Of a stretch of DNA of 64,000 bases, positions 19,479 to 45,900 are shown piece by piece. Positions within the stretch are counted from its first letter, which is position 1, and each line of letters starts with the position of its first letter. The stretch is from Candidatus Omnitrophota bacterium. Lineage in GTDB: Bacteria > Omnitrophota > Omnitrophia > Omnitrophales > Aquincolibacteriaceae. The DNA is taken from assembly GCA_016930235.1 (NCBI GenBank), contig JAFGHI010000010.1:250-64249 (forward strand). The letters are read 5' to 3'. Under the pieces are notes generated by a model. That model saw only the letters and a list, made by a program, of their open reading frames with translations, had not been told where the DNA came from and searched no databases. Position numbers and translations under genes: made by a program.

Positions 19479-20383
19479 CCCGTTTTCTCCGCAACTCTCA
19501 ATTTTGCGCTTCTTGCTCGCCGGTTTTCCAACATCTCCGAGCGGCTCGGCACTACCGGCTTCTTGGTCACTAAGAAAGCTTGTCTCTTCTGACTTAGATC
19601 CCTAAAAAAATATTTCGCGATCCTGTCTTCCGAAGAATGAAACGTAATCACACCCAGTCGGCCCTTTTGTCCTATCCGTTCCCAAATCTTCGGAAGAGCT
19701 TTTTCAAGGCATCCTAATTCATCATTCACCGCAATCCTCAATGCCTGAAAAACCCTTGTCACCGGATGATGACGAGCATGCTTGGGACGTCTTCCCTTTT
19801 CAAACTTTAAAGATCGCGGCAAAGCTCCTTCAAGAACCCCGACTAAGTCTTCTGTTGTCTCAATAGGCTTCTGTCGTCGTGACTGACAAATAGCATATGC
19901 AAACTTTCTCGCCCGCCGCTCATCGCCGAACCTGTAGAAGATCTCCGCAAGGTCTTCTTCTGAAAGATCATTGACGAGATCCCTTGCTTTCATCGATTGC
20001 TGAACATTCATCCGCATATCCAGCGGTCCCGGATGGTTAAAGCTAAAACCCCGTTCCGGATCATCAATCTGTTCTGCCGAGAACCCGACATCTAATAATA
20101 CGGCATTTACAAACCGAATATTTAGAGAATCTAGGATTTTATCGAGATTAATAAAGTTTTCTTGGTGCAATGTTGCCTGTGGATAGGGTTTAAGTCTCTC
20201 TTGACATCTGGAAATGCTTGAAGCGTCCTGGTCCAATCCAATCAAACGTCCTGTTAGGCCTATTGTTTTGATTATCTCCATGGCATGCCCTGCATTCCCG
20301 AGTGTCCCATCAACCACGATATCACCCGAGCGCAAGGCAAGAAGCCTGAGCGTCTCTTGAAGGAGTACCGGTTTATGGGGCAA
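19475..20383 (-). CDS. rsmH: 16S rRNA (cytosine1402-N4)-methyltransferase
   Basis: 302 aa of the MraW family (DGTLGNAGHA, GFSAEQIDD). Confidence 0.9.
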   Translation of the reverse strand: MPHKPVLLQETLRLLALRSGDIVVDGTLGNAGHAMEIIKTIGLTGRLIGLDQDASSISRCQERLKPYPQATLHQENFINLDKILDSLNIRFVNAVLLDVGFSAEQIDDPERGFSFNHPGPLDMRMNVQQSMKARDLVNDLSEEDLAEIFYRFGDERRARKFAYAICQSRRQKPIETTEDLVGVLEGALPRSLKFEKGRRPKHARHHPVTRVFQALRIAVNDELGCLEKALPKIWERIGQKGRLGVITFHSSEDRIAKYFFRDLSQKRQAFLVTKKPVVPSRSEMLENRRARSAKLRVAEKTG

Positions 20384-20711
20384 AGCTCTTAATCGCCTCT
20401 TCTTCTGAATGATAAGATTCCATTAATCCGTTCACACCAATCAACCGGAACGTTTTTTCAACTTCCGGACGAAGATGGATGAGCTTGATATCCCCTTTTT
20501 GCGCACGAACTTTCATGAGTCGGTCAATCAAAATACCCAATCCGGCTAATTCCACCCGCTTTGCGGATTGAAGATCGAGCAATAACTTCTTATGATTCTT
20601 TTTAAGAAGTCTCGCCAAACGGTTTTTGATTTTGACCATCTCTCCGGCACTCAGGTCTCCTTGAAATCGTAGAACCTCAACACCCATATTCACTCTGGAA
20701 CGAAACGCCAT
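20373..20711 (-). CDS. STAS-domain protein (anti-sigma factor antagonist-like)
   Basis: 112 aa with the SpoIIAA-like STAS pattern (VLRFQGDLSAGEM ... LDLQSAKRVELAGLGILI). It lies between mraZ and rsmH. Confidence 0.6.
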   Translation of the reverse strand: MAFRSRVNMGVEVLRFQGDLSAGEMVKIKNRLARLLKKNHKKLLLDLQSAKRVELAGLGILIDRLMKVRAQKGDIKLIHLRPEVEKTFRLIGVNGLMESYHSEEEAIKSFAP

Positions 20712-21189: not shown

Positions 21190-21225
21190 GGTTTACCACT
21201 TTCCCCCACTTTTCACCACTTTCAT
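21190..21225 (-). promoter_or_regulatory. putative MraZ operator / Pmra region
   Basis: On the minus strand, AAAGTGGTGAAAAGTGGGGGAAAGTGGTAA contains three direct AAAGTGG repeats with 10-bp periodicity immediately upstream of mraZ. MraZ operators are classically triple GTGG(G) direct repeats. Confidence 0.5.
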
Positions 21226-21517
21226 CATCAGCGGGAGTATACTCCCCCCTCAAATGGGAGTCAACCCTTTTCTTCAAGAAAATCCTCCTAAGTGATTATC
21301 TTTCAACTAAATACAATATATGGTGTCGGAGGATGTATAGGCCCACTATTAATAGTTATTCTCTCACGAAGAAATGGGACTACGCTCCCCAGGCGAATGG
21401 TTTCACTATGGTGGACATTTCTACGAGGACGTGGCTTATGAAATCTAAGATGAAAAAAAACTTAGATGAGGACAACAAATACTGCGGAACAAACAAAAGA
21501 AATCCAAAGGAGAAAGA

Positions 21518-22252
21518 TTATGTTTGCGGAGAGACTTCTTCGTTCTCTAGATACAAAATTCGTGAGCAATTTTCACAGATAACCAAATGTTCTTCGAGCT
21601 GAAGCTCATTAATGATTTGGGGCCTTAATTTAATTTGGCATGCGGCACAATTTTCACCCTCGGTTTTGACGAGAGCCAAACCTTGCTTAACCTCTACGAT
21701 ACGGTTGTATAAATCTCTCACATCGAGAGGGACCTGTTCCATCACGGTCTGACGGTCCTTCTTAAGTTTTTCGATTGCGGTCTGAAGCGTCTTTTCTTGC
21801 TGATCCAGTTCCGCAAGCTTCTGGCTGACTTCCTTTTCAACCTGCCCTAAGCGGCCCTTTTCCTTTTTAACTTCCTCATCAGCCGCTTCGACTTCATCGA
21901 GGATTTTAATAATTTCTTCCTCCAAAAGAGAATTATCAGCCTTCAGCGAGGCGATCTCTTGCTGCATGGCGCTGTATTCTTTGTTGGTTTTCAACAATCC
22001 TAACTGTCCATCCAGCTTTTTGACATTGGCCTCTTTTTGTGCCAACTCACCTTCTTTCTCTTTCTGCCTAAGCTGAAGCTTACGTAATTCCCCCTCAATT
22101 TCATTCAGGTGGGACTTTTCACTCTCAAGCTGCCGCTTAACCTCGGCTTTCTTCTCAGGGATGTCAAAAAGCTGCTGTTGGGCAGCATAGAGTTCGCTAT
22201 CGACAACCTGAATTTTCTTAAGAGCTTCTATGGTCTCTCGAACCTTTAACAT
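21518..22252 (-). CDS. coiled-coil protein with C-terminal C4 zinc ribbon (COG1579-like)
   Basis: A long heptad region is followed by CAACQ...CENCSRIL. Confidence 0.65.
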   Translation of the reverse strand: MLKVRETIEALKKIQVVDSELYAAQQQLFDIPEKKAEVKRQLESEKSHLNEIEGELRKLQLRQKEKEGELAQKEANVKKLDGQLGLLKTNKEYSAMQQEIASLKADNSLLEEEIIKILDEVEAADEEVKKEKGRLGQVEKEVSQKLAELDQQEKTLQTAIEKLKKDRQTVMEQVPLDVRDLYNRIVEVKQGLALVKTEGENCAACQIKLRPQIINELQLEEHLVICENCSRILYLENEEVSPQT

Positions 22253-22375
22253 AATAGAAAGGCATTATAGGGAAGTTTCCGAACAGCATCAAGGATGAAA
22301 TCACAGACTTAAAATATGAGCGTGTATAAGGTTAATCAACATTCGCTGGGAGTATAGAATTCTTTTAGACTTTAT

Positions 22376-22981
22376 CTAAACCGGGAAAGCTTGTTTGGCC
22401 TCTACGCCAAGTTCGATAAAATCATCTAATTCGCTTCGATCAAGTTTTGCATCGCGAAAAAAATGATAACGTTCATCAATATCATCGACGGCCTTCTCTA
22501 ACTCAATGGATGGTATCCTTTCTGCAAGATCCAGGAGGGCCCATTCTCTCAAAGCCATTCCTTCACGTTCCTGGGGCGCCATAAAAAAATACTCGAATAG
22601 CCGCACACCTTCCCTAGACAGAAGTCTTTCCTTTTCGTCTCTTGAAATAGAGATAAGGTCCATCACTCCGTCTGAAATTGATGGAAAAAAAATAAAGAGC
22701 CTGAGTTTCTCCCCGGTAATCCTCATCCAATCATCCCACTCATCACAAAGTGATTTATAGGTAGTAAGCGAAAAGGGTTCAAACATAATGCGACCCCAAA
22801 GGAGTCCATCAGGAACTTCAAGAAAGATCTGGTCATGTTCAATGGAGGCATTCACAAGCACAGGCTTGACATTGAAACCACGGTACATGCTTTGCATCAC
22901 ATCCCGCAAAGCAGTCATCATCGCCTGGCGGTCCTGTTTTGTTACTTTTTCGACAAAGAAGAAATTCATGGATTGTGACAT
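22376..22981 (-). CDS. hypothetical protein (third gene of ParA-CBM48 operon)
   Basis: 201 aa with no recognisable motif. Its start overlaps the stop of the upstream gene. Confidence 0.45.
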   Translation of the reverse strand: MSQSMNFFFVEKVTKQDRQAMMTALRDVMQSMYRGFNVKPVLVNASIEHDQIFLEVPDGLLWGRIMFEPFSLTTYKSLCDEWDDWMRITGEKLRLFIFFPSISDGVMDLISISRDEKERLLSREGVRLFEYFFMAPQEREGMALREWALLDLAERIPSIELEKAVDDIDERYHFFRDAKLDRSELDDFIELGVEAKQAFPV

Positions 22982-23778
22982 GGGGCAAACTCCAAGGATG
23001 TTTGTAATAATCTTGCAAGCATTCGTTTTTCTAAAGAATTGTAATTTTCAACCGGCTTCGAGGACAAATGTTCCAAGGCCAAACTCGAAGAAAAGGTATA
23101 TTGATGCATCCCCTCTTGCAATCGTCCAAGCCAGGTCACACTCAAACCTAGATGCCGGGACGTCATCTCAGAAAACTTTTCGTAAAGGAAACTTCCCTTT
23201 TCCTGAGTCACCGCACCGTCAAAAAGCAGGTAATATTCAAGGTGCGGATTGAGGGCCATGGAAGCCTTCATGGCTTTATAGACTTCCGATAGGCTCTCGA
23301 TATTGGGTCTCACCAGCAAAATCCATTTATCAAGAACAGGGATGATCTTGTCAAACTGGGCAATCCTGTTATATTCGAAATCAAGAAAGAACTTTTGGTT
23401 CGCGAAACTCTCGGATGATACAACATCGTGAGGATATTCCCATACTCTTTCAAGTTGATCCCAGGTAAAAGAAACCCACCGGATGTTCGAACCAAAAGAC
23501 TCGCTCTGCAGAATGGTAGGCGCATCTTCGGGACGCCCCAAATAACGTGACGTGAGAGAAATGATCGTGCACGGACAAGATGTATCTGCCACCCGGGAAG
23601 CCAGGTAACTCGTTAAAAAAAGCGAGCTACCCGGTCTGTCAGGATTAAACACGCTTAAGCACTCTATCCTCTTCTCATTCAGCAGATTCTGACGTTCGAC
23701 GGTTTCGACCTTCTGTTGGAATAAAGGTGAAATATCTTTCAAACCACGTTTAAGACGACGTTTTGGGTCCATAGTCAC
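22966..23778 (-). CDS. hypothetical protein, possibly degenerate ParA/MinD-like fold
   Basis: 270 aa. The N-terminal strand-loop region (ECLSVFNPDRPGSSLFLTSYLA) resembles a ParA Walker-A segment that has lost the P-loop lysine. The gene overlaps the ParA-CBM48 gene by 4 nt. Confidence 0.35.
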   Translation of the reverse strand: MTMDPKRRLKRGLKDISPLFQQKVETVERQNLLNEKRIECLSVFNPDRPGSSLFLTSYLASRVADTSCPCTIISLTSRYLGRPEDAPTILQSESFGSNIRWVSFTWDQLERVWEYPHDVVSSESFANQKFFLDFEYNRIAQFDKIIPVLDKWILLVRPNIESLSEVYKAMKASMALNPHLEYYLLFDGAVTQEKGSFLYEKFSEMTSRHLGLSVTWLGRLQEGMHQYTFSSSLALEHLSSKPVENYNSLEKRMLARLLQTSLEFAPCHNP

Positions 23779-24872
23779 ACAAGCTCCAGGTAAGAATCAA
23801 CGGTTCCATATTCGTTTTGCCGTTGAACAGGTTGATAAGGATCAATCTGCCATTCTCCATCCACAATAAATTTATACCGGTATTTCCCCGGATGGATCGG
23901 AATCACCTTCTGCCACAATCCATTGGGGCGTTTCTGCATGGCTTCGGGTATCCATTGATTAAAGTCACCGGCAATTTCGACGATCTCAGCCTTCTCATTA
24001 ATGGCCTGAAATAAAACACCCCCCAAGACAGAACGCGGGCCATAATGGCGGTGAAGAATATTTTTCCATCCGAGTTCATTCATCGGAAATCGTCGCTGCC
24101 AATCCCGTTTCAAATATTCCACGGCCAAATGAAAATAGTCTCGGAAAGCAGATGATTCAGGGGCATACTCCACAATGCTTTGACCGGCACTCGATGCTTC
24201 TTTTAAAACAATAGCATTGTGAATCACTGTCCGCAATAATTGATCCTGAAAATGAGCTAGGACTTCTTCATAAATCTCCTGTCCAAAGGTTGTATCAGAA
24301 TCAAAGAGAGTCAAAAGAGCGTAGACATTTAAGCGCGTTTCACGAAAGATTTGAAGATGCTGGATGGTCTCAGAAATCTTGGCCAGCCCATGCAAAGAAA
24401 AAAACGAGGGTTCGATCGGAATAATCAGATCATCAGCAGCTTCCAAAGCATTGAACGTCAAAACGCCAAGATTTGGGGGGCAATCCAAAATCACATATTC
24501 AAAATCCGGATTTTCCCTTTCCAAGATGTCCAGTTCCCGCTTAAGGCGCTTATCCCTATCAGGCGAATTGGCCAAATCTTCCTCTAAGGCATTGAGCACA
24601 CCGTCGGAAGGCAAAAGATAAAGGCATGAATTCACTTGCTTTAAAATGGGCATGACACTCGGACGAAGAGCTTCCCTAAATCCTAACAGATCATAAAGCG
24701 TCAACGCTCCCTTCTCAAGCTGGACACCCAACCCACAAGTTGAATGCCCCTGCGGATCCAAATCCACGAGCAACGTTTGTTTCCCCAGGTGGGCCAAACA
24801 AGCAGCTAAATTGATACTTGTCGTGGTTTTACCGCAGCCGCCTTTTTGGTTGGCAACCGCAATGACACGCAA
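23775..24872 (-). CDS. ParA/MinD-family ATPase fused to C-terminal AMPK-beta-type glycogen-binding domain (CBM48)
   Basis: The N-terminus has the deviant Walker A KGGCGKTT and VDLDPQG. The C-terminal ~80 aa (IAGDFNQW...GKYRYKFIVDGEWQIDPYQP...GTVDSYL) matches the GxFNxW / YKFxVDGxW / DP / GTV signature of AMPK beta GBD / CBM48. Confidence 0.8.
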   Translation of the reverse strand: MRVIAVANQKGGCGKTTTSINLAACLAHLGKQTLLVDLDPQGHSTCGLGVQLEKGALTLYDLLGFREALRPSVMPILKQVNSCLYLLPSDGVLNALEEDLANSPDRDKRLKRELDILERENPDFEYVILDCPPNLGVLTFNALEAADDLIIPIEPSFFSLHGLAKISETIQHLQIFRETRLNVYALLTLFDSDTTFGQEIYEEVLAHFQDQLLRTVIHNAIVLKEASSAGQSIVEYAPESSAFRDYFHLAVEYLKRDWQRRFPMNELGWKNILHRHYGPRSVLGGVLFQAINEKAEIVEIAGDFNQWIPEAMQKRPNGLWQKVIPIHPGKYRYKFIVDGEWQIDPYQPVQRQNEYGTVDSYLELV

Positions 24873-24972
24873 AATAAAACCTCCCTCGATAATTAAAATG
24901 AGTCCAAGTCTAATAATAATAACGACTTGAGGTTGGTATCTCTTGAGCTCTCAGAAGAAAAAAATTGAAGCC

Positions 24973-26001
24973 TTAAAGAAGGTCGGAACTGGAGAGTGTC
25001 TTAAATCGATTACCCTCGTCAAAGTAGGTTAGAAACCAATGAGTTTCGGGAAATTGCCGCGCCATGTCCGGAGCGTCATTAGGCCCCAAAACAAAAAGGG
25101 TTGTTGAGAGAAAATCGGCGAGGACGGCTGAAGGCGCAATCACGGAAACGGCGATAGAATCACGGGCCGGGTAACCCGTCCTGGGATCAAGGATATGGGC
25201 ATAGCGTATTCCGTCCCGAACAAAAAAATTTTCATAATCCCCGCTGGTTGACACAGCTTGATGGTCTAGCGAGACAACTTTCCACGTTCGTGAAGGATCA
25301 CGGGGATGTCTTAATCCGACACGCCATAAGCGGCCCTGAGGAGACTTCCCAAACGCAAAAACTGTACCGCCAATATTAACAAGAGCACTCATGATGCCTT
25401 CCCTTTTCAAAACCGAAACAATATCATCACAGACAAAACCTTTACCAATAGCTCCCAAATCAATACCCATACCGGGGCGGAGGAATTGGATCTCAGAACG
25501 ATCCTCGTCTGTCAAAATGCCGTCGCTTCCTACCTGTTTCATCACGCTTTCAATTGCCGCTACACTCGGGATATTTAACTCATCATCAAAAAATCCCCAC
25601 AATTTCATTAAGGGATAAACCGTCACGTCAAAAGCCCCCTGAGAAAGATTGTGAAAATCTTTTGCGGTCTGGACAATGTGAAACGTTTCCCGAGAGACCT
25701 GCTGGACCGATTCATATCCTGTTTGGTTCAAACGGTAAATTTCTCCCGGTGCCTCAAAGTAATTCAATTTATTTTCCAGTTCCCGAAGCCTTTGAAAAGC
25801 AACCTCAAGGGCTTGGTCTCGCTGGCTCGGCGTTCCTCCGGCGACAATAATTTCGACAAAGGTGCCCATCATAAGACCCTGACGTTTTGAAAAAGTCATC
25901 TGACCGCAACCTGTCAGGAAGACCGCGATGGAAAGAAACAAACAAACTTCTTTCCATGAAAAGAAAAACCACCTGTAGGCAGGACAAATCCGTATGTGCA
26001 T
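24973..26001 (-). CDS. apbE: FAD:protein FMN transferase ApbE (lipoprotein)
   Basis: 342 aa with a lipobox (LTGC) and ApbE motifs (GAIGKGF, TSGDYE). Confidence 0.85.
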   Translation of the reverse strand: MHIRICPAYRWFFFSWKEVCLFLSIAVFLTGCGQMTFSKRQGLMMGTFVEIIVAGGTPSQRDQALEVAFQRLRELENKLNYFEAPGEIYRLNQTGYESVQQVSRETFHIVQTAKDFHNLSQGAFDVTVYPLMKLWGFFDDELNIPSVAAIESVMKQVGSDGILTDEDRSEIQFLRPGMGIDLGAIGKGFVCDDIVSVLKREGIMSALVNIGGTVFAFGKSPQGRLWRVGLRHPRDPSRTWKVVSLDHQAVSTSGDYENFFVRDGIRYAHILDPRTGYPARDSIAVSVIAPSAVLADFLSTTLFVLGPNDAPDMARQFPETHWFLTYFDEGNRFKTLSSSDLL

Positions 26002-26026
26002 TTTGAGGCTGAGAAAATCCTCTCTC

Positions 26027-26968
26027 TCAAATCATGACCAGTTGTTCGATAGGAACAATTCCTACAACATCTCCCCAGGATTCCGTAGCCACAGCATAAG
26101 ACTGCCTTTTTTCCTGAAGCGTTAAAAAGGCTTTTTCGACTGAAGTTTGCTTGGGAACAAAAATGGGTGAGCGTAAATAATCTTTTAGATTTTGGTCATC
26201 CTTTTCTTCAAAGAGGAGGTCAAAAACATAAACCATGCCCACCACCAAGGAAGGAATCTCTTCGTAAACAAGAACCATCCGAGCTTTATTCTGGCGCACA
26301 AGGTTTTTGACATCCCCGACCGTGGCGCGTATGTCCACCTTGGGCACTTGCTCAAGCGGTGTCATGACCGACTCAACGCGGATCCGCTCAAAATCCAGAA
26401 TGGTATTAATGATTTGCTGCTCATGTAAATTCAATACCCCCGTTTTCGCTCCTTCTTCAATTAAACCGCGAAACTCTTCTTCTGAAACGAAAATGCTTTT
26501 CCCCGTTGCTTTTGGATAAATACCCACCAAAAAACGGACACCGCGAAGCACAACCCATACCGGAATCCGTAACAAACGCAAGAAGAAAGACAGCCCCCAA
26601 CTCCATTGAAGCAAAAATTGATGACTTTGGATCCTGCAGTAATCCTTCGGAACAACTTCACCGAAGATGATGATGATCGGAGCCATTACAAGGGTCACCA
26701 GCCACTCGTTATTAACATGGAAGTAGAGGTGAAGCACATAAGTCAGAACAGCCGTTGCGGTCACATTCACAACATTGTTCCCAATTAAAATTGTAGTTAA
26801 CAATTCATCTGTTTTCCGATAGAGCTTCATCACCTTTTGAGCCGCAACACTTCCGGAATCAGCCAATTCTCTCATTTTAACTTTATTTGAGGACACAAAG
26901 GCCATCTCCGAACCGGAAAAAAAGGCCGAAAGGACTAAACACAAAATTAAAATCAAAACATATGTCAT
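26027..26968 (-). CDS. CNNM/HlyC-CorC family membrane protein (DUF21 + CBS pair), short form
   Basis: 313 aa with N-terminal TM helices (DUF21) followed by CBS domains. It lacks a CorC_HlyC C-terminus. Confidence 0.75.
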   Translation of the reverse strand: MTYVLILILCLVLSAFFSGSEMAFVSSNKVKMRELADSGSVAAQKVMKLYRKTDELLTTILIGNNVVNVTATAVLTYVLHLYFHVNNEWLVTLVMAPIIIIFGEVVPKDYCRIQSHQFLLQWSWGLSFFLRLLRIPVWVVLRGVRFLVGIYPKATGKSIFVSEEEFRGLIEEGAKTGVLNLHEQQIINTILDFERIRVESVMTPLEQVPKVDIRATVGDVKNLVRQNKARMVLVYEEIPSLVVGMVYVFDLLFEEKDDQNLKDYLRSPIFVPKQTSVEKAFLTLQEKRQSYAVATESWGDVVGIVPIEQLVMI

Positions 26969-28203
26969 TTGTTCCTCTTTTTGACGATTACACTTCGAAT
27001 ACGACGTTGCCGGATCACATCATGAATGCGAAATTCAAATTCTCGCGTGTCAAAAACCTTGCCCTTTTTCGGAACTTCTCCTAACAGCTCTAAAATGTAT
27101 CCTCCGAGCGTACTTGCTTCATCCGCTACAAGATCAGAATTAAAATATTCATTAAAGTCCGCCAGAGGAACTTTGGCTTCGACAAAATATTCTTGGTGGC
27201 CAAAAGGCCTTATAGGTCTTTCCACAACCGCATACTCGTCATAAAACTCCCCGAAGATTTCCTCGAGGATATCCTCCAAAGTCACAATACCTGCCGTTCC
27301 ACCATATTCGTCAACACAAACCGCGAAATTATGTGTTTTCCTTCGGAACTCCGCAAGCAGGTCATCAATTCGTTTAGCCTCAGGGACATAAAGCGGCTCG
27401 ATCACCATCGATTTTAAATCCTGAGCCGGATTCAACATAAATTCTTGCACGGATGTTACGCCAACAATATTGTCGATCGATTCCTGATAAACGGGAAAAT
27501 AACTAAAATGATGGCGCCGGATGATATCTTCGTGTTTCTCCCTGGGGTCGTCCAAATCCAAAGCGGCCAAATCAATGCGGGGCGTCATGATATCTTTAAC
27601 CTGCCGCTCACCCAAATCCATGAGTTTTTGGATCATGTAACGCTCTTGACGGTCAAGGACACCTTCTTCTTCACCTATTTTGACCAACGTTTTGAGTTCA
27701 TCTTCAGAAATCTGATCGGAAGACAACTCTTTACGGATCGGGATCAGGAGTTTGACAATGCGGTTACTGATGGAACGCACGAGCCAACGAAACGGAAAGA
27801 AAATAACGGCAAAAACTCTCAACGGGAAAGAAACGATAAAAGCCACCAACTCATTAAAACGCACCGCCAAAATCTTGGGTATGATTTCTCCAACCACAAT
27901 CAAGATAACCGTAAAAATAAAAAGTGCCGGCCCCGTTCCCTTACCTCCCCACACTTCCATAGCTACCAAGGTGACAATCGCAGTCGCTAAAACGTGAACG
28001 AATAGATTTCCAATAATAATGGTATTAAGGGTTCGCCTCGGATTGCTGAGATGATCCTGGATCCAACCGATCATCCGCTGGTGTTTTTCTCCTAACCGGT
28101 TCTTTTCAATCTTCGTCAGAGAAAAGATAGCCGTCTCGGCTGCCGCAAAAAATCCGGCGAATAGCAGCAAAACCACGAGGATCAAACCATGAGCTAAAAG
28201 CAT
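26965..28203 (-). CDS. CNNM/CorC family transporter (DUF21 + CBS pair + CorC_HlyC)
   Basis: 412 aa, paralogous to the adjacent gene and overlapping it by 4 nt. Confidence 0.8.
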   Translation of the reverse strand: MLLAHGLILVVLLLFAGFFAAAETAIFSLTKIEKNRLGEKHQRMIGWIQDHLSNPRRTLNTIIIGNLFVHVLATAIVTLVAMEVWGGKGTGPALFIFTVILIVVGEIIPKILAVRFNELVAFIVSFPLRVFAVIFFPFRWLVRSISNRIVKLLIPIRKELSSDQISEDELKTLVKIGEEEGVLDRQERYMIQKLMDLGERQVKDIMTPRIDLAALDLDDPREKHEDIIRRHHFSYFPVYQESIDNIVGVTSVQEFMLNPAQDLKSMVIEPLYVPEAKRIDDLLAEFRRKTHNFAVCVDEYGGTAGIVTLEDILEEIFGEFYDEYAVVERPIRPFGHQEYFVEAKVPLADFNEYFNSDLVADEASTLGGYILELLGEVPKKGKVFDTREFEFRIHDVIRQRRIRSVIVKKRNK

Positions 28204-36114: not shown

Positions 36115-36525
36115 CTAAATCTCATGCACCCCGGCTTGGCCTAGGACTTCTTCAGCTGCGAAAATAGGAGCCTCCGCGCGCAAAGCTAGAGCCACGCTAT
36201 CTGAAGGACGGGCATCGATCATCACCGTTCCGTTTTCATTCCGCCGGACCTGCAATTTCGCAAAAAAAGTATTACTCTCCAATTTATCAATGACCACACG
36301 CTCCAATTTTGCGCCCAGTTTCTCAATCGCCGACAACATGAGATCATGCGTTAAAGGCCTCGGCGGTTTGATGCCGCTCAGCTTCAGTTTGATCGCATTG
36401 ACTTCAGCCATCCCAATCACAACAGGAAGATAGCGCGTCCCTTCCTTTTCCTTAAAAATAATTACTTGTTCGTTTCGATTTTCGTCAATCTTGATCTTGC
36501 TTAATTCCAGTTCAACGGTTCCCAT
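36115..36525 (-). CDS. bifunctional nuclease family protein (BFN/DUF151)
   Basis: MGTVELELSKIKIDE...LPVVIGMAEVNAIKL... shows the DUF151/BFN pattern. The start at 36525 overlaps the upstream gene by 14 nt. Confidence 0.65.
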   Translation of the reverse strand: MGTVELELSKIKIDENRNEQVIIFKEKEGTRYLPVVIGMAEVNAIKLKLSGIKPPRPLTHDLMLSAIEKLGAKLERVVIDKLESNTFFAKLQVRRNENGTVMIDARPSDSVALALRAEAPIFAAEEVLGQAGVHEI

Positions 36526-38182
36526 GAGTTTTCTTCTCTTCTGAGGCTTGATCGTTTTTAGCCAGCCGGAAGCGCCCGTTTTTTTCCCGGTTGACCTGAT
36601 CCTGAAAATGGAGATGGACACGTTTGCCTTCAACAATTTCTTTCTCAATAATTTCCTGTTCGGCCAGAATCTTTTCGATCTCCTGCTCGCGTGAGCGTAT
36701 TTCGCTCTCGATTTCTTTCTGCTTCTCAACAAGCTCCCTGAAATAACCCTCTTTCTCGACTAAACGATCCGCCAATTGACTTCGCTTCTCGTGAATTCCC
36801 TGTTCGGCTTGAATTTTACGCATCTCCTGTAATTGCCGTTTAGCCTCTTCGATTTGCGCATCATAACCTTGAAGCTTCTGGATGGCTCCCTGAAGCTCTG
36901 TTTCTTGTTTTTCACAAGTCCGGCAGAGTTCCGTCACTCTCTCTTCGGACCCCTTGTATTTGGACTCCCAGGATTGAGAGGTTCGCCGCGCTTCCTCCAG
37001 TTCCTGATATAGCTTAGCGCGGTCTTTGTCCACTTCTCTTAAACGGTCTTCTACCTTTTCACGAAGTGTTTTCTCGGTCTGCTGTGCCTCCTGCAAGATA
37101 TGGATCTGTTGTTCTAACGTCTCCTGTTTTTCACGCCAACGGCTCAATTGTTCGCCGCTTACCCGCGCACCCCGTTCTAGGTTTTCCTTCTGCCGTTCCA
37201 AATCCTTAACGCTTTCGGCAAGCTCTTCGGCCTTGAGACGCCACTGGTCAATCATTTGGGTCGCCTGTTGAAGCCTCTCCTCCAGTTGTTTGTTTTTTGT
37301 CTCCAATTCTCCCCGGTACTGACGGCCTTGTTCTTCCTTCTCTTTGATCCGGCTTCCGAAATCAAGCCGCTCGTTTTGAAAAACCCTCGCATTTTCCTCG
37401 AGTTCTTTATTGCGTTTGCGTAAGGTCTCCATTTCTTGACGCGTTTGGACCATCTTTTCTTCAAAAAGCTCTCTCGCCTCCCGGTACTCGTCTTTAAGGA
37501 CATCATACTTTTCTTCTAAATTGGAAAGCAAGGCACGTGCCTCTTTGATCTCCTTTTCCCTTCCTTGAAGGAGGCTTAACTCCGGAGCCGGCAACGGTCT
37601 TTGAGCACGAGCCTCTTCAAGTTTTCGAATGATCTCCGTTAATCGGGAAACTTCTTTTTCAAGATCTGCGTGGGACCTTTTCCAATTTTCAATTTCAGAT
37701 TCCAGTTCGCGCCGCTCGGGTTCCGGCAACCCTGGAATCGGCATTACCTCCGCGTGCTCAGACTTTTCCGGGCTCTCTCTCATCATACGGATCGCATTTA
37801 AAGCCTCATCAGGTCCCAAAACCTCTTGGACCTCTTGATTCTTCTGATGACTCTCCCAAGTATTGAGAAACGCTAAGTTGGGAGGTTCAGGCCAAACGGT
37901 CCGGTAATATTTTCTTTTGCGGAAGGTATCATTGGTGAGAACGATTTGAGCATTGGCGGCTTCAAAAAAACCCTTCACTTTATGGGCAATGTCTTGATTC
38001 AGATTATCCAAAAGAATGATGGGTGTGCTTTCTACCAAATCGCTGGCTTCTTCGGAGGAAAGTGAAAAGACTTCGGAAATTTTGAGGGCAATCCGTTTCT
38101 TGTCGATCTCGCTCAGAATCGGATTCAGAACAACACACCAGTTTTGCTTTTCGCTTCGCGATTTCTTATTGCCTAGCAACAT
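36512..38182 (-). CDS. L7/L12-C-terminal-domain-like protein fused to ~450-aa coiled coil
   Basis: The N-terminal ~80 aa (EEASDLVESTPIILLDNLNQDIAHKVKGFFEAANAQIVL) closely parallel the ribosomal L7/L12 CTD (EAKDLVESAP...EAGAEVEV). The remainder is an uninterrupted E/K/R/Q-rich heptad coiled coil. Confidence 0.6.
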   Translation of the reverse strand: MLLGNKKSRSEKQNWCVVLNPILSEIDKKRIALKISEVFSLSSEEASDLVESTPIILLDNLNQDIAHKVKGFFEAANAQIVLTNDTFRKRKYYRTVWPEPPNLAFLNTWESHQKNQEVQEVLGPDEALNAIRMMRESPEKSEHAEVMPIPGLPEPERRELESEIENWKRSHADLEKEVSRLTEIIRKLEEARAQRPLPAPELSLLQGREKEIKEARALLSNLEEKYDVLKDEYREARELFEEKMVQTRQEMETLRKRNKELEENARVFQNERLDFGSRIKEKEEQGRQYRGELETKNKQLEERLQQATQMIDQWRLKAEELAESVKDLERQKENLERGARVSGEQLSRWREKQETLEQQIHILQEAQQTEKTLREKVEDRLREVDKDRAKLYQELEEARRTSQSWESKYKGSEERVTELCRTCEKQETELQGAIQKLQGYDAQIEEAKRQLQEMRKIQAEQGIHEKRSQLADRLVEKEGYFRELVEKQKEIESEIRSREQEIEKILAEQEIIEKEIVEGKRVHLHFQDQVNREKNGRFRLAKNDQASEEKKTHGNR

Positions 38183-39967: not shown

Positions 39968-42900
39968 TTACGCGGCTTTTTGGATTTGGAGAGCAGCCTG
40001 GACTTCTTGACGCAACAAGCGATCAATCGCGGAAACATTCACAATCGGGCGTCCCTCGGAATCAAAAACAATAATCTGATTTTCGGGTCCTTCTCCCATT
40101 TGCCGAAAGAGATAAACGGCTTTGAGGAGTTCGGCTTGGACATTCTTAGCATCTGTTGAAGTCCTGGCCATTAAAGCAGAGGCAAACGCGAACGCCGTTT
40201 GAGTCATCCTCCCCAAAACTTGAGATTCTAATTTAGCTTCGCTTGTAAGGCGAATGCCGACCGGCAGAACCTGAGCCGTCTGCTCCATAAGAATTTCATC
40301 GCTAAACTCCATGACGGGCAGGACATTCTGTCCCGAATTTAGGATGGTCACCTGCCGGGGACTGGATGCCGCCGTAAAGGGAATCGGTATCGACTTTAGA
40401 ACTTGGATTAAAGCATTGGCGGCCTTTTTATCGCCGAGAATAGCAAAGCGATCCAATTCTCCCCGCAGGAAATAGGACCGGATGATATCCCCGTATTGTC
40501 CGATCGCGCTTTCACGATCCAACCTCGAGATCCCATCTTTTAATTCAGGAATATCCAGCCCCAAAGTTACCTTGCCTTGATAGGTATCTGCCACCTGCTG
40601 CATGAAAGTTACAAGATCCCGAACCGCCCGTTCCGCAATTTTCGACGTCATGCTATAAACTTCAGGCCTGTCTTCAAAAGCTGTGCCGAATCCTTGACGG
40701 CTTAAAAGTTCTTCGACGGCAATTTCGACAGCCCGCTTGAGAACCTGTTCCAGTTCCGCACCGTCAATTTGATGCGCGACGATCGGTCGCACGGCTGAAA
40801 GCACCTCCGATTGATCAGGCAAAACAAAATCTGCGGCTAATGCTTCGGCCGGAATCAAGGATCGCGCAATCGTTAAAGCACTGTCCACCCAAGTTAAGCG
40901 GAGTTCCGAACGGGGTTCCATCGGTGTGCCGTAAAGTTCCTCGGGCGTCCATGTTCCATCCCAGCCCTCCGGTTTCTTCATCACCGCAAGTTTTTTCAAA
41001 GCAGGCTCAGGTTTGGGTTTTGCCTGCAGCAGAGATTGTCCTTGCTTCTGTAAGCGAATCTGCTGCCAAGAGGCAAGCGGAAGCATAATTTCGATCTTCC
41101 CTATCCCGGGTAAAAGCGGGTTCCGAAGATGATACTCGATTTGGACCCCCGAGTCGGCCGCAATTCCGACCAGAACTTCCGTAAAGATCTCAAAGGCATC
41201 CCAAAGAGGATTGCTTACGCGATAACCTTCGCTCATTTGAGGACGCTCGGGTAGGGGTAAATAAACGCTCACACCCTGCTGCATATCCGGTCTCGATTTA
41301 ACAAGTTCAAAAAGACGAAGAAATTGTTCCCGGTAAGATGCCTCGTTCCACCCACCCTCATTAAAATCCGCAATGCCTTTCTCGGGATAACCCGCAATAT
41401 CCTGATCCAGGGCATCCAGCGTCATGACGCGCGGAGCAGGAGGTTTCGCGGTTCTTTTATACTCCTCGGCAAAAGTCGAAGCCGCCTTTTCTCCCATAAC
41501 AACAAACCGTTCATTTTGTCTCAATAACCCTTTTTCATACAAGATATCAAAGACCTCGCGAATCGGCATTTCTTGCCTTAATTCCGAGCGAACTTCTTCA
41601 GTCTGGGGGATTCCGGGACCCCGGAAAGACTTCGTGGCAACAAGATAATGATATTGCCGGTTATCATCCAGAAGGGTTCCGCGCTGAACATCAGACCATT
41701 TGAGGGCCTTAAACGCTTGGAGATCGCTTACTGTGAAGGGTTCCTCTTGAATGGAAATAAAACGGCCCCCCGGATTCAAGACAAGCCAGGCAACATCCGT
41801 CTCATTTGTTTCAACCACCGTTCCCTTAGTCAAAATTGAAAAGACAATATCCTGACTCTCTTTCCATTGAGGATTTTGATACTGGCTTAAATCACTTTCT
41901 CCGGTTAGAACAACCGTCTTCTCAGTTCCTGTCAATCCCAAGAAAGAGTTTAAGGAATCACGCAATCGGGATCCGATCGAAATATCAACCGTGCCGCCAA
42001 CTTCGGAAACTTGAGAGGTTTCGGACAATCCGGGCTGTTGTTGGTAGGGTTGCTGCCTTTGAGGTTGTTCTGCGGGAACTCGCTCCACTTCCGGAACAGG
42101 CTGAACAGCATCAGGAGAAATACTCTTCGCCTGCACCTGAGATGAAATATCGCTGATCTCACGTAACTCCGAACGCGGGCGCTGCCTTCGCGCAATCTTA
42201 AACCTCTGAAACACGTTCCCCTGCAAAATCCTATCCTGAATGGTGTTCTGCAACCGGCTCACCGCTTGATCAAACTCATCAACCGATGGCATCTGTTCTC
42301 CGCCCGCCAAAATCCGCTCAACGAGGGGCTTGATCTGTGATTCAATTTCCTCTGGTGTCGTATTCCGGACAAATTCCAGCATCTCCGGGACCTGATTCGT
42401 CTCAGCCACCTGGTAAACTTCAATCTCCGGCCGTATCAAGCGTAAAGCCAGAAGGGCCAAGAGCAAACGCCTGGAACCACCCCACACACCGTCAACTGTT
42501 ACCCACTTGCCTTTTGAATTCATAGAAGCCGCCACTTCCGCAATCTTTCCGACCAGATTCGGATGAAGCTGTCTAAGTTTCTTTTGCGCCTTTGGATCAT
42601 CGCGCCCAACCTGATTAATCGAAACCATTAAGTCATTTGACCCGACAGCATAAAAATCCGCATCGGGAGATATCATGGCATTCTCCTTCTCAAACATAAA
42701 ACCAATAAGGATCTGATTAATAATCTGACGCGCCTTTTCTTGCTCTTCTTCGACAATCCCGCTTAAATACTCCGTTTTAGCCTCCTCAATTAATTCAAGG
42801 ATACCGTTTATGTCTCTCTGATCAATAATATCCGGAATAAGAATATGCAAATTGACTTCGGGCTGCGGCCCCTTTCCTTCTCGCGCAAGTTCTTCTAAAC

Positions 42901-45900
42901 GATTATAAGCAGCAACCTGAGCCTGAAAAAAAACCATCAGCTGCATTTTGCCGAATTCCCGAAACTGTTTGAACAAGTCTCCATAATGTGGGTGAGTGCC
43001 TTCCTTATCCAAATAGAAACGAACACCCAAACGGTTGCGCCCTTCTTCTAAGGGGATCTCTAAAATCCTTCTCACCTCATCTGGTTTTCTCCCTTCGGTA
43101 AGGATCTTCGGGCGTTTGTCCATCTGAACATCAAAAATTCTCACAATAAAAGGCCGCCTTACCTGGAAAAAAGGCTGCATGAGAATCCCTTGGATTGTCT
43201 GTGCGAATCGGACCCGGTCATTTTCAATCCCCTGCCATCCGGGATGGGCCGCCAATTGCTCGGTTCGAAAAAGTCCGACACCCTTTCCACCGTGACGCTC
43301 AACAATCGACCGCAGTTCGGCCCGCCTCTGAAAATCCTCAGGTTTCGTATCATCCACATAAAATAAAATCTCCCGACCCGCAAAGAAAACCGGCTCATCG
43401 GCCCGGGCAAGAAAAAAGGCATCTAAATCAGCATAACTTTCCCTCCTTGCAAACCATGTATCCCGCGTTTGGTAATCAGGTCTCAACACAACGAACCCCT
43501 CACGGCCATCAGCCATGGCCCAACCCTGAAGTGTTTCCTTGGAAAATTCTAACCCGGCAGCTTCAAAATCTGCAGCCGGTATCACTACAATCCCCAAATC
43601 CCGGGCGAAGGTCACCCAATGTGACAAGCTTGTGCCACCCGGGCTCACAATCGCAACAACCCTTCCGTGACCACGCAAAGAACTCAAAAGATGGTAAAGA
43701 TCCCGCTCATTCTCAATAGTCTTCGCGAACACCACCAAATCACGATCGACTTGTTGGGTTGGGCCAAAGCGTGCACGGTCGTAATAACGCATGAGAAATT
43801 CAAGCGCCTCAGGTTCAACATCGTTGACACGCCTGCCCTCACCGCCCCTATTATCCGCATAAGCATTGAACATAGGGATCATGGTTTCCTGAAAATAACT
43901 GATGATGCCAGCTTGAAAAGGATCGTCTGGCTGAATTCTCTCCCATTGGCCACTGCGTATCTCATCCAAAACATTCTGAAAAACCTCTGCGGCATGCTGC
44001 CGGTTCTCACGAACCCGCCGTGAGATCTCGTCAAAAATCATCCGCAAAATCTCCTCAACGGCATGCTGCTGCTCCTCGCCAACCCATTGCCTGATCTGCG
44101 TGACAACTCCCGGAGGGAGGAATTCCATTTCAGCGGGCACCTCCCCTTCAAGGGGCATCTCTAACACTATTTTTTTATGTCCCTCCCAGAATCTTTCCAG
44201 GACTCCAGCCTCATTTTCAAACGTCTGTTGGGCCCTTAAATCCATAAAATGGCGCATATAGAACAATGCCGTGAGATATTCGATAGACCGGCCGGTTTTT
44301 AAAATATCCTGGCGTACCTGAAAGTCAAATCTCTTCACCCATGCTTTCCATTTTTCGATGTTTGTATGTGCCTCTTCATGCAAGGTCCGATCAACGGCTG
44401 CAATGCTGGCTTCGTCTTCTTTCTTTTTAACCATCGCGCTGATTCTCTTTTGAATTTCCGCCTCATAAGATGCCGTAATGGCATCTAGAAATTGATCCAG
44501 AACATCAACCATAACCTCTTCGTGCCGGCGAACTTCCTCTTCTTTTTTTACCTGAACTTCTTCCTCAAGATCACTCATCTCAAAAATATAGTCATACGTA
44601 TCCAAATCTTCTTGGATGCTTTCAACATACCCTCGAAGCTCTTCATTCACTTGAATCATGCGTTTAAAAAGTTCACCACTGGGTAAATTACGGAAATTTG
44701 CAATATGTGCGTTGAGAAGGTCAATAATAATTTGAAGGGCTTTTTGAGGCGTTTTCCCCTTATCAAGGTGGTAAGCCAAGCGCTCAAAGACATCCATCTT
44801 GATCGTCTTAGGCCTGCCATGTTCATCGATTGTCATACCATAGACTGTATTATCAGCAAACATCCTACGCCTCGTATAGGAAGCTTCTTTCTGACCGTCC
44901 GCAAGCTTAGAATCGTCTGTATTCAAACCAAAAGGCAAATTCAGGAACAAATCAAATACTTTGGTCATCAACCGGTCTTTGGCGGTTTGGATTAAGACTT
45001 CGCGGACTTTTTTATTATGATCCTCGTCGGGTAAATGGATAAAATCCTCCCGATTGACAAGGGCAGGGATCACCGACCCCTGAATAAAACCCATGGCATA
45101 TACCGTCGTCGGGGCAGGAGCCGTTTGTTCTGCCAACTCCCGTTTCATTTCGTCAAGCATTTGCCTTAAGACTTCATCACTTCGGCTCTCTTGATGGCGG
45201 ACCCGATAAATAGCCTCTTCAAGAAGAAGCCCTAAAACTTCTTGCATTTGTTCCCCTAAAGACATCTGGCGCTCACTCTCATCCAAAACGCGCCGCCAAA
45301 TATTTGTTAATGCATGGACTTCATTTTCAACCTTTTGGGCAGCTTCCCGTGGCGTATCAAAAGGGCGGACAAGCGAGAAATTCACGCGCTTGGCTTCCCT
45401 TTCCCAAGTAACTATTTCACCCGAGGCAATAACATTCATCGCCGGCGAGGATCCCCGAAGGATCAGATTGTTAGGTCCTGTTCGAAGCTCGGAGCGTTGT
45501 GATTTAGATTCCGCCTGCACCGGGACTGACGGGACATCGACATAACGTTGATGGATAGCAAACTGCTGGAGGTGATGTATCAAAAGTTCGATTCTCCACC
45601 GCCAAGAACGGATGACTTGATAAGACAGCGTTACGGCAATCGCTGCCATCAGGGTTAGAACCGAACAGGACAAAGCAAAAGGAATATTCCCTTCATCCCA
45701 AGAAATTGCCACACGAATTAAAAAAACAATGCCTGCCATAGCCGTCATACTTCCCACTAAGAACCAACGAAATCCGGCCGCAAAAATCGAATTATACAGC
45801 ATGTCTTCATCCAACACGTCGACCACTTCTTGAATTCTTTCTTGGATATTCAAATCTTCATCCTCCAGAATTTCTGTGATTTCAGCATCATTGGATAGGC

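Follow-up and report, generated by a model that had tools for sequence, protein, structure and literature searches.

Gene organization of the module

In this study, a three-gene module was analyzed in a 64,000-nt stretch of a Candidatus Omnitrophota genome; "the window" refers to this whole stretch. Three co-directional minus-strand open reading frames (ORFs), designated A, B, and C, fill positions 22376–24872. Gene A encodes a ParA/Soj-type ATPase fused to a C-terminal carbohydrate-binding module (CBM) of family CBM48, and the module is a real, widespread, and uncharacterized ParA-partner system that probably acts on glycogen. All three ORFs reported in the initial annotation were found. The features of the module are as follows (labels of the type L001–L080 denote related loci used for comparison).

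23775–24872, minus strand: gene A, 365 aa, ParA/Soj-type ATPase with C-terminal AMPK-beta-type CBM48 (ORF, Pfam, and PDB matches)
24822–24845, minus strand: deviant Walker A KGGCGKTT, residues 10–17 of A, signature lysine K10 included
23784–23996, minus strand: AMPK1_CBM/CBM48 domain, residues 293–363 of A (Pfam)
24880–24887, minus strand: Shine-Dalgarno sequence GAGGGAGG, 7 nt upstream of the TTG start of A, read from the sequence
22966–23778, minus strand: gene B, 270 aa, ParA/MinD-fold pseudo-ATPase without a P-loop, with a disordered N-terminal tail
23719–23763, minus strand: N-terminal motif KRRLKRGLKDISPLF of B, residues 6–20, candidate ParA-activating tag with invariant R11
22376–22981, minus strand: gene C, 201 aa, probably 197 aa with a start at 22969, inactivated PD-(D/E)xK nuclease-fold protein
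22388–22444, minus strand: C-terminal amphipathic/acidic helix LDRSELDDFIELGVEAKQ of C, residues 180–198

The Shine-Dalgarno sequence of gene A contained a strong GGAGG. The genes had been described as overlapping by 4 and 16 nt. The first value held: the A/B junction is GTGA, in which the TGA stop of A overlaps the GTG start of B by 4 nt, with a 2-nt spacer as the alternative if B starts at the ATG chosen by NCBI. The second value did not hold. The 16-nt B/C overlap occurs only under the first ATG of C, and because every homolog of C starts at Met5 of the window protein (MNFFF), the overlap is probably 4 nt (ATGA). Operon signals in the module region were at chance level. Proteins 100% identical to A, B, and C are named "AAA family ATPase" (A, from Candidatus Omnitrophica) and "hypothetical protein" (B and C) in NCBI, where no family model was found for the architecture of A, for B, or for C.

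The ParA–CBM48 fusion and its distribution

Residues 1–250 of A matched the Pfam families AAA_31 (E 8e-48, 163 bits, cutoff 27) and CbiA (68 bits, cutoff 25.4). The best PDB matches of this half were ParA (8ray, E 5e-46) and Thermus Soj (1wcv), and it was about 40% identical to Soj/ParA. The scores remained under the NCBIfam cutoffs for ParA_partition (121 vs 180), RepA (91 vs 348), and SopA (46 vs 725). Residues 293–363 matched AMPK1_CBM with 53.1 bits, about twofold over the curated cutoff of 26.8, and A also matched CBM_48 (29.9 bits, cutoff 22.4). The C-terminal ~70 residues aligned without large gaps to the glycogen-binding domain of rat AMPK beta1 (1z0n/1z0m, E 1e-8), and the segments GDFNQW, YRYKFIVDGEWQIDP, and GTVDSY paired with it residue for residue. 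Other matches of the CBM of A were to two plant CBM48s that bind starch (SEX4 and LSF1), to a pullulanase, and to GlgB. The reading of the C-terminus as an AMPK-beta-type CBM48, made earlier from these three motifs, was consistent with all of these matches.

Homologs of A were scanned with one genome per species. More than 586 relatives were found, and the best 80 loci were analyzed; conservation is given over 81 members, these 80 loci plus the window. Among the best 80, 79 aligned with A from residue 1 up to residue 345 or beyond, which lies well inside the CBM; the lone exception, L033, was cut by a contig end. The 120 best database matches to A were all 363–384 aa long and carried PF13614 and PF16561. 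The initial annotation had considered that the fusion might be unique to this assembly, for example through a frameshift. It was present in at least 79 species-level genomes of at least 9 phyla, with carriers in Omnitrophota, Planctomycetota, Desulfobacterota/Thermodesulfobacteriota, Myxococcota, Acidobacteriota, Gemmatimonadota, Rokubacteria, Krumholzibacteriota, Fibrobacterota, Eisenbacteria, and others. Judged by these matches, the ParA–CBM48 fusion is real and widespread. The single plasmid-database match that seemed to reach into the CBM, from Nocardia, was rejected, since it proved to be a normal ParA-ParB pair whose alignment had been extended spuriously.

The residues of both halves were highly conserved. 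The deviant Walker A, on which the ParA/MinD assignment had first been based, was the sole KGGxGK[ST] motif in the window; KGGCGK was invariant in 81/81 members, and T16 was T in 80/81. The catalytic aspartates of Walker A' and Walker B (D37, D39, and D130) were invariant in the 81 sequences, and the ATPase of A looks catalytically intact. In the CBM, W307, K334, W341, and D359 of A align with W100, K126, W133, and N150 of AMPK beta1. W100, K126, and W133 contact sugar, as reportedly found by Polekhina et al. in 2005, and N150 is counted as a further carbohydrate-contact position. The aligned positions were conserved as W307 in 80/81, K/R334 in 79/81, W341 in 80/81, and N/D359 in 80/81 members, and the W, K/R, and W positions were ~98–99% conserved across at least 9 phyla. 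AMPK beta1 L146 is replaced by Y/F in the CBM of the fusion, and N150 by D/N (D in window A). This conservation across the 81 members indicates that both halves of A are under purifying selection for their canonical activities. Alpha-glucan is the somewhat favored candidate for the in vivo ligand of the CBM.

Two family signatures of the ATPase half were also observed. The Walker A cysteine is invariant family-wide (KGGCGKT; KGGVGKT in Soj), and a near-invariant histidine occurs in DPQxH (window 24742–24756, minus strand; DPQGN in Soj). The two residues may be family signatures only, or a possible redox- or metal-sensitive site.

Probable partner proteins and the N-terminal tag

B showed a ParA/MinD fold without a P-loop, with FNPDRPGSSLF in place of Walker A, and had no Pfam match. 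One of the downstream proteins had been suggested to be a P-loop-less ParA-like pseudo-ATPase; this applies to B, the middle gene, and C has a different fold, by which C was ruled out as a second pseudo-ParA. The N-terminal tail of B is disordered and basic and carries the invariant residues of the B family. Within KRRLKRGLKDISPLF, L9, R11, L13, D15, and P18 were invariant in 86 sequences, and this motif was the most conserved part of B.

Searched with a profile of this tag, 39 of 78 eligible loci and the window gave a match in the ORF that directly follows the fusion (E <0.06 vs 3,366 ORFs). Partner or adaptor roles had been proposed for the downstream proteins, and this conserved, disordered, basic N-terminal motif on the adjoining gene in about half of the related loci agrees with that proposal. 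The tag heads differing globular domains: pseudo-ParA, nuclease-like, and RodZ-like. To judge from the sequences, the constant elements of the tagged loci are ParA-CBM48 and a short N-terminal tag, and the tagged domain is interchangeable. Partners of ParA/MinD ATPases generally contact the ATPase by their N-terminal region, and the remainder of the protein serves for cargo (PMC11407121, PMC10241942), and the conserved N-terminal tail of B fits this rule. N-termini of ParB/Spo0J encoded beside ParA/Soj genes read GGLGRGLAALIP, ALGRGLDALLS, RGLGKGIGALFP, and KGLGRGINVFFP. The tag shares with them its position, the basic flank, and a 5-residue LG(R/K)GL core. The resemblance is an analogy, by which the invariant Arg could plausibly be an arginine finger.

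C showed a restriction-endonuclease-like alpha/beta fold. No conserved acidic/lysine catalytic triad D...(D/E)xK was found in 42 C-family sequences. The near-invariant positions were F98, Y131, L180, and E184. The most conserved segment was the C-terminal helix (L180 95%, E184 98%, L185 86%), which was predicted at residues 182–198 with a predicted local distance difference test score (pLDDT) of ~95. C was ruled out as an active nuclease or DNA binder, since the catalytic residues are missing and the protein is acidic; its role is presumably non-catalytic. Neither B nor C had ParB-family matches in domain profile searches. A, B, and C very likely form a ParA-partner system in which the tail of B regulates the ATPase of A.

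Arrangement of related loci

The ORFs of the 80 loci were clustered, and several arrangements were found. Class I comprises the window and Omnitrophota loci L001–L010, with the order A-B-C, a CT398-like gene, and mraZ. In class II (Desulfobacterota, Eisenbacteria, and other Omnitrophota), A is followed by a ~310-aa gene and a ~200-aa gene. The ~310-aa gene is homologous to B (hhalign 97.8%, E 7.5e-13) and has sub-threshold CbiA/ParA matches. The ~200-aa gene has a sub-threshold NucS_C match and a weak profile link to C (hhalign 60%, E 8e-5); hmmsearch did not link C to the second gene downstream of A in other phyla. That these genes and C form one family is weakly supported by the profiles.

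In Acidobacteriota, Rokubacteria, and Gemmatimonadota, there is no pseudo-ParA, and the nuclease-like protein itself bears an N-terminal motif, PLGRGLEDVSHLF. In other lineages, the tag is carried by a RodZ-like protein (HTH_17/MerR and RodZ_C) or by proteins without recognizable domains. In L049 (1614–5269), the tagged partner is a RodZ-like protein of 451 aa with HTH_17/MerR and RodZ_C, followed by a convergent GlgB. The description of the locus as a three-gene module thus held for the window and part of Omnitrophota, in which A-B-C is kept; elsewhere, the module has two genes or a different composition.

Class III (L046–L078) had no B-like tag. In L048 (249–5909), for example, the order is an Alginate_exp-type porin, GH57, a transmembrane protein with a CBM-like C-terminus, ParA-CBM48, a DUF4870 membrane protein, a Lys-rich protein, and DUF134. 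The Lys-rich protein has ~130 aa, an extremely Lys-rich N-terminus (median isoelectric point 10.9), and a small beta-barrel. It could be the partner in this clade.

Alpha-glucan enzymes near the fusion

The screen of the loci used the E. coli sequences of GlgA/B/C/P/X and MalP/Q together with GH57 sequences drawn from these same loci, and it reached 8 kb. Alpha-glucan enzymes lay within 8 kb of the fusion in 15 of the 80 loci; two weak GH13-like matches would raise this number to 17. Shared ancestry inflates these adjacency counts. The enzymes occurred in at least 4 independent arrangements, with two GH57 types, GlgB, and GH13-like enzymes. In 12 loci (class III), GH57 is directly upstream on the same strand. 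L014 and L018 contain a GH57 branching enzyme (Glyco_hydro_57 and BE_C), and L049 contains a GlgB with 50% identity to E. coli GlgB.

In L018 (6676–10649, minus strand), an operon encodes a starch-synthase-like glycosyltransferase (GT) of the GT4/GT5 type (Glyco_transf_5, 74 bits), a DUF4912 protein, and the GH57 branching enzyme, and it abuts the ParA-CBM48 module in convergent orientation. This order suggests that DUF4912, which is uncharacterized in the literature searched, is a component of GH57-type glycogen synthesis. L014 has a co-directional string of A, a pseudo-ParA, a nuclease-like gene, a 251-aa gene, DUF4912, and the GH57 branching enzyme. The DUF4912 protein of L014 (11725–13608, plus strand) has 627 aa, with a tag at residues 45–60, a long Lys/Ala-rich repetitive region, DUF4912, and Glucodextran_B. 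Its tag, KKLGKGLEDISTLFLS, is 15/16 identical to the pseudo-ParA tag of the same locus, and on this basis a protein of an alpha-glucan operon appears to have acquired the ParA tag. Glycogen synthesis is encoded by most Omnitrophota metagenome-assembled genomes in one survey (PMC8542988).

Proposed function

The module may be a ParA-type system of three proteins that acts on alpha-glucan (glycogen) in the cytoplasm. A would be an active, ATP-dimerizing ParA, anchored to glycogen particles by its own C-terminal CBM48. B would be a dead ParA-fold protein whose basic flexible tail (LxRGLxDISxLF, Arg11) enters the A dimer and stimulates ATP hydrolysis, as the peptides of ParB, McdB, MinE, and PomX act on their ATPases. 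C would serve as an adaptor, a scaffold with an inactivated nuclease fold and a conserved C-terminal helix. Cycles of ATP-dependent dimerization would cross-link or tether CBM-bound glycogen, and most family members would also bind the nucleoid. Release stimulated by the tag would then spread, space, or partition glycogen particles together with their building enzymes. In the clade of the window, B/C or glycogen itself as the matrix may take the place of nucleoid tethering. The sequences show the domain identities, the folds, the conservation, the gene linkage, and the portable tag; glycogen binding, stimulation of the ATPase by the tag, and a positioning outcome are what we infer for this system. 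For the role itself, organizing glycogen particles by tethering, spacing, or partition, we see about even chances.

Several observations weigh against this interpretation. ParA systems typically have the cargo-binding module on the partner, and its place on the ATPase is unusual. Five ParB/Noc N-termini were not significant against the tag profile (best 3.7 bits), and a profile search of PDB with the tag gave no significant match; after these results, the description of the tag as a ParB-like motif by homology was dropped in favor of analogy. Among the 15 clear loci with alpha-glucan enzymes, 12 represent one syntenic clade. No glycogen gene was found in the 64-kb window, either by Pfam on 18 large ORFs or by tblastn with E. 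coli GlgA/B/C/P/X, MalP/Q, and GH57, nor within 8 kb in the class I loci, the closest relatives of the window. No glgA, glgC, or glgP was found near the module in the screened loci. The glycogen link suggested by the initial annotation gains indirect support: the CBM contacts are conserved, GH57, GlgB, and a starch-synthase-like GT occur beside the module in several independent contexts, and a tagged DUF4912 protein adjoins a GH57 branching enzyme. The window and its closest relatives have no such gene nearby. The class I module also adjoins the CT398-like gene and the division and cell wall (dcw) cluster, which could point to a division-related role.

A further point of this kind concerns DNA binding. 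Soj-type ParAs bind the nucleoid through conserved arginines, and in work by Hester and Lutkenhaus from 2007, B. subtilis Soj is said to do so via R189 and R218. The alignment reference for Soj positions was checked against the annotated B. thuringiensis Soj, and positions 193 and 222 of A are the equivalents of R189 and R218. In the fusion family, position 193 is R in 75/81 members and position 222 is K/R in 65/81. Window A has D193 and V222, is neutral at four other family-basic positions, and has no MinD-like C-terminal helix, its C-terminus being the CBM. Class I is also where A, B, and C are most tightly coupled; of its loci L001–L008, all have a non-basic residue at the second site, and four have Q or E at the first. 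By these residues, a canonical nucleoid matrix is doubtful for window A, and because the Soj-type basic residues are missing there, the textbook nucleoid ratchet may not apply in this clade. In class I, either matrix binding would have moved to B/C or the proteins would no longer use DNA.

A more specific form of the glycogen-organizing role is put forward tentatively, as we hold it doubtful. The module would be an undescribed ParA system, spread over many phyla and dedicated to a storage polysaccharide, in which the ATPase binds glycogen directly by its own CBM48, a portable N-terminal LGRGLEDVSHLFLS tag plugs in diverse proteins and glycogen is the matrix in the clade of the window. The tagged proteins would be a dead ParA paralog, dead nucleases, RodZ-like proteins, and the DUF4912 protein of the GH57 operon. 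A glycogen matrix would, if true, be a third kind of ParA/MinD matrix beside DNA and membrane.

Alternative explanations

Glycogen could instead be a regulatory input or docking platform, while the ParA-partner pair positions or controls another target, for example the division site, envelope machinery, or a DNA region. CBM48 would then couple activity to carbon-storage status, as the CBM of AMPK beta links the kinase to glycogen. The synteny of the window-clade module with the CT398-like gene and mraZ-rsmH-ftsL-ftsI would fit this explanation, as would the variable partner domains, which include a RodZ-like (cytoskeleton/envelope factor) and a nuclease-fold domain, and the Soj-type nucleoid-binding arginines kept in most family members. 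MipZ, PomZ, and MinD are known to position the divisome (PMC11407121). However, the dcw synteny is limited to one Omnitrophota clade, and the only cross-phylum constant is the CBM48 with its preserved sugar-contact residues. A tag-bearing protein sits inside an alpha-glucan operon, and the nuclease-fold partners are acidic, unlike DNA binders. We regard it as unlikely that glycogen is such an input or platform and not the cargo.

A could also scaffold or help assemble the machinery of glycogen synthesis instead of acting as a spatial partitioner. Through ATP-dependent dimerization, CBM-anchored A would recruit or release tagged enzymes and adaptors (DUF4912, GH57 partners) at the particle surface and so set the initiation, number, or size of particles, much as CBM48 scaffolds of plants (PTST) bring enzymes to starch. 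The tagged DUF4912 protein is operonic with a GH57 branching enzyme, DUF4912 of L018 lies between the starch-synthase-like GT and the GH57 branching enzyme, and the class III GH57 is directly upstream on the same strand, all of which are consistent with such a factor. The CBM of A matches the plant starch-targeting CBM48s of SEX4 and LSF1. In addition, window A is without nucleoid-binding residues, and a matrix-based ratchet is therefore not required. Yet most loci, the window included, have no nearby glycogen enzyme, and the Soj DNA-binding residues kept in most family members suggest that the nucleoid matters. We know of no ParA/MinD ATPase that works as an enzyme-recruiting scaffold, and a scaffold of this type is quite unlikely.

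It is improbable that the C-terminal beta-sandwich is merely CBM48-like and binds a ligand other than glycogen (another glycan or a protein), which would make A an orphan ParA with unrelated cargo. CBM48 and early-set folds are versatile, and the CBM of AMPK beta also makes protein contacts. The replacement of AMPK beta1 L146 and N150 by Y/F and D/N and the window without glycogen genes would agree with a different ligand. Against this, the W, K/R, and W positions for sugar stacking and hydrogen bonding are at least 98% conserved over at least 9 phyla, the best-scoring models and structures all come from proteins that bind alpha-glucan (AMPK beta, SEX4, LSF1, pullulanase, and GlgB), and the linkage to alpha-glucan enzymes is recurrent.

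Finally, an artifact, or an ordinary chromosomal or plasmid ParA of ParABS, is hardly credible: the ATPase half is ~40% identical to Soj/ParA and matches partition-family models, but a frameshift or assembly artifact is ruled out by hundreds of independent full-length fusions, and canonical ParABS or plasmid partition is ruled out by the lack of any ParB in 81 contexts (no ORF with the ParB/Srx motif GERRxRA in the window or any of the 80 loci), by the ParA_partition score of 121 under its cutoff of 180, and by plasmid ParAs, which match only the ATPase half (residues 2–257) and pair with ParB. No parS- or centromere-like repeats were found in 21200–25200, where only short chance-level repeats occurred.

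Genes surrounding the module

The surroundings of the module are housekeeping genes. Directly upstream are ApbE and two tandem CNNM/CorC-type transporter genes with overlapping ends (24973–28203, minus strand); every class I locus keeps the CNNM pair in synteny. On the 3' side are the CT398-like gene, mraZ, a STAS gene, rsmH, ftsL, and ftsI. The CT398-like gene (21518–22252, minus strand) encodes a coiled-coil hairpin and a C4 zinc ribbon, lies between A-B-C and mraZ in 8 loci, and has its own promoter-like site at 22292–22264. The STAS-domain gene (PF01740, E 1e-13; 20373–20711, minus strand) is inserted between mraZ and rsmH and overlaps the rsmH start. It occupies the same place in related Omnitrophota loci and is an unusual member of the dcw cluster.

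Two further ORFs of the window were recorded. A single ORF of 4,663 aa occupies 39968–53959 (minus strand); a preprint (10.1101/2023.11.21.568195) reports giant genes in Omnitrophota and links them to predation. A 556-aa ORF without a Pfam match (36512–38182, minus strand) lies in the 2-kb bin with the most extreme AT skew of the window (−0.237).

Comparison with known systems

Bacteria generally rely on ParA/MinD ATPases to position DNA, carboxysomes, chemoreceptor arrays, flagella, and the divisome. To our knowledge, no polysaccharide cargo has been described for these ATPases, and we know of no member with its own cargo-binding module. The organization and inheritance of bacterial glycogen are largely unknown. 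In E. coli, glycogen simply builds up at the poles and skews division (PMC12706056). The initial annotation was not aware of a ParA-based glycogen partition system, and the full-text literature search likewise turned up neither a ParA carrying CBM48 nor glycogen organization that depends on ParA. A 2024 review of the ParA/MinD family contained no mention of glycogen, carbohydrate, or granule. If the proposed role is true, the ParA/MinD repertoire would be extended to storage polymers in at least 9 phyla, the unannotated families B, C, and DUF4912 would gain a first functional context, and a compact, engineerable handle for spatial control of glycogen would be available.

Soj/ParA-Spo0J/ParB (type Ia/Ib ParABS) belongs to the same ATPase family and includes the closest sequence relatives of A, with the deviant Walker A and its signature lysine. 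As in ParABS, the adjoining, translationally coupled partner has a basic disordered N-terminal peptide with an LxRGL core and an invariant Arg, and most fusion family members keep the Soj DNA-binding arginines. Unlike ParABS, the module has no ParB/Srx domain, no parS-like repeats, and no ParB nearby; its ATPase bears a CBM48, and the partner is a pseudo-ParA or a nuclease-fold protein. The tag does not score as a ParB N-terminus, and window A is without the DNA-binding arginines.

In McdA-McdB, PomXYZ, ParC/PpfA, and FlhG, the cargo-binding element is on the partner, whereas here it is fused to the ATPase. Compared with McdA-McdB and other ParA/MinD systems for non-DNA cargo, the cargo here would be a polysaccharide and the partner a dead ParA paralog. 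B differs from FlhG/FleN in having no Walker A, no Pfam match, and no flagellar context, and in its activator-like N-terminal tail. C differs from NucS and restriction-endonuclease PD-(D/E)xK proteins in being acidic, in lacking conserved catalytic residues, and in its added conserved C-terminal helix.

AMPK beta, SEX4, LSF1, and PTST share the domain family, in which a non-catalytic CBM48 targets a regulatory or scaffolding protein to storage glucan. In the present case, the domain is fused to a bacterial cytoplasmic ParA ATPase and not to a kinase scaffold, phosphatase, or coiled coil. PhaM/PhaF, which bind DNA and granules passively, distribute polyhydroxybutyrate granules to daughter cells by nucleoid tethering. 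The idea of passing on a carbon-storage inclusion in this way would be shared with them, but they are not ParA ATPases and are unrelated in sequence. Relative to the known ParA/MinD positioning systems, the unusual elements of the module are a ligand module on the ATPase, a dead ParA paralog as the partner, and a portable activation tag.

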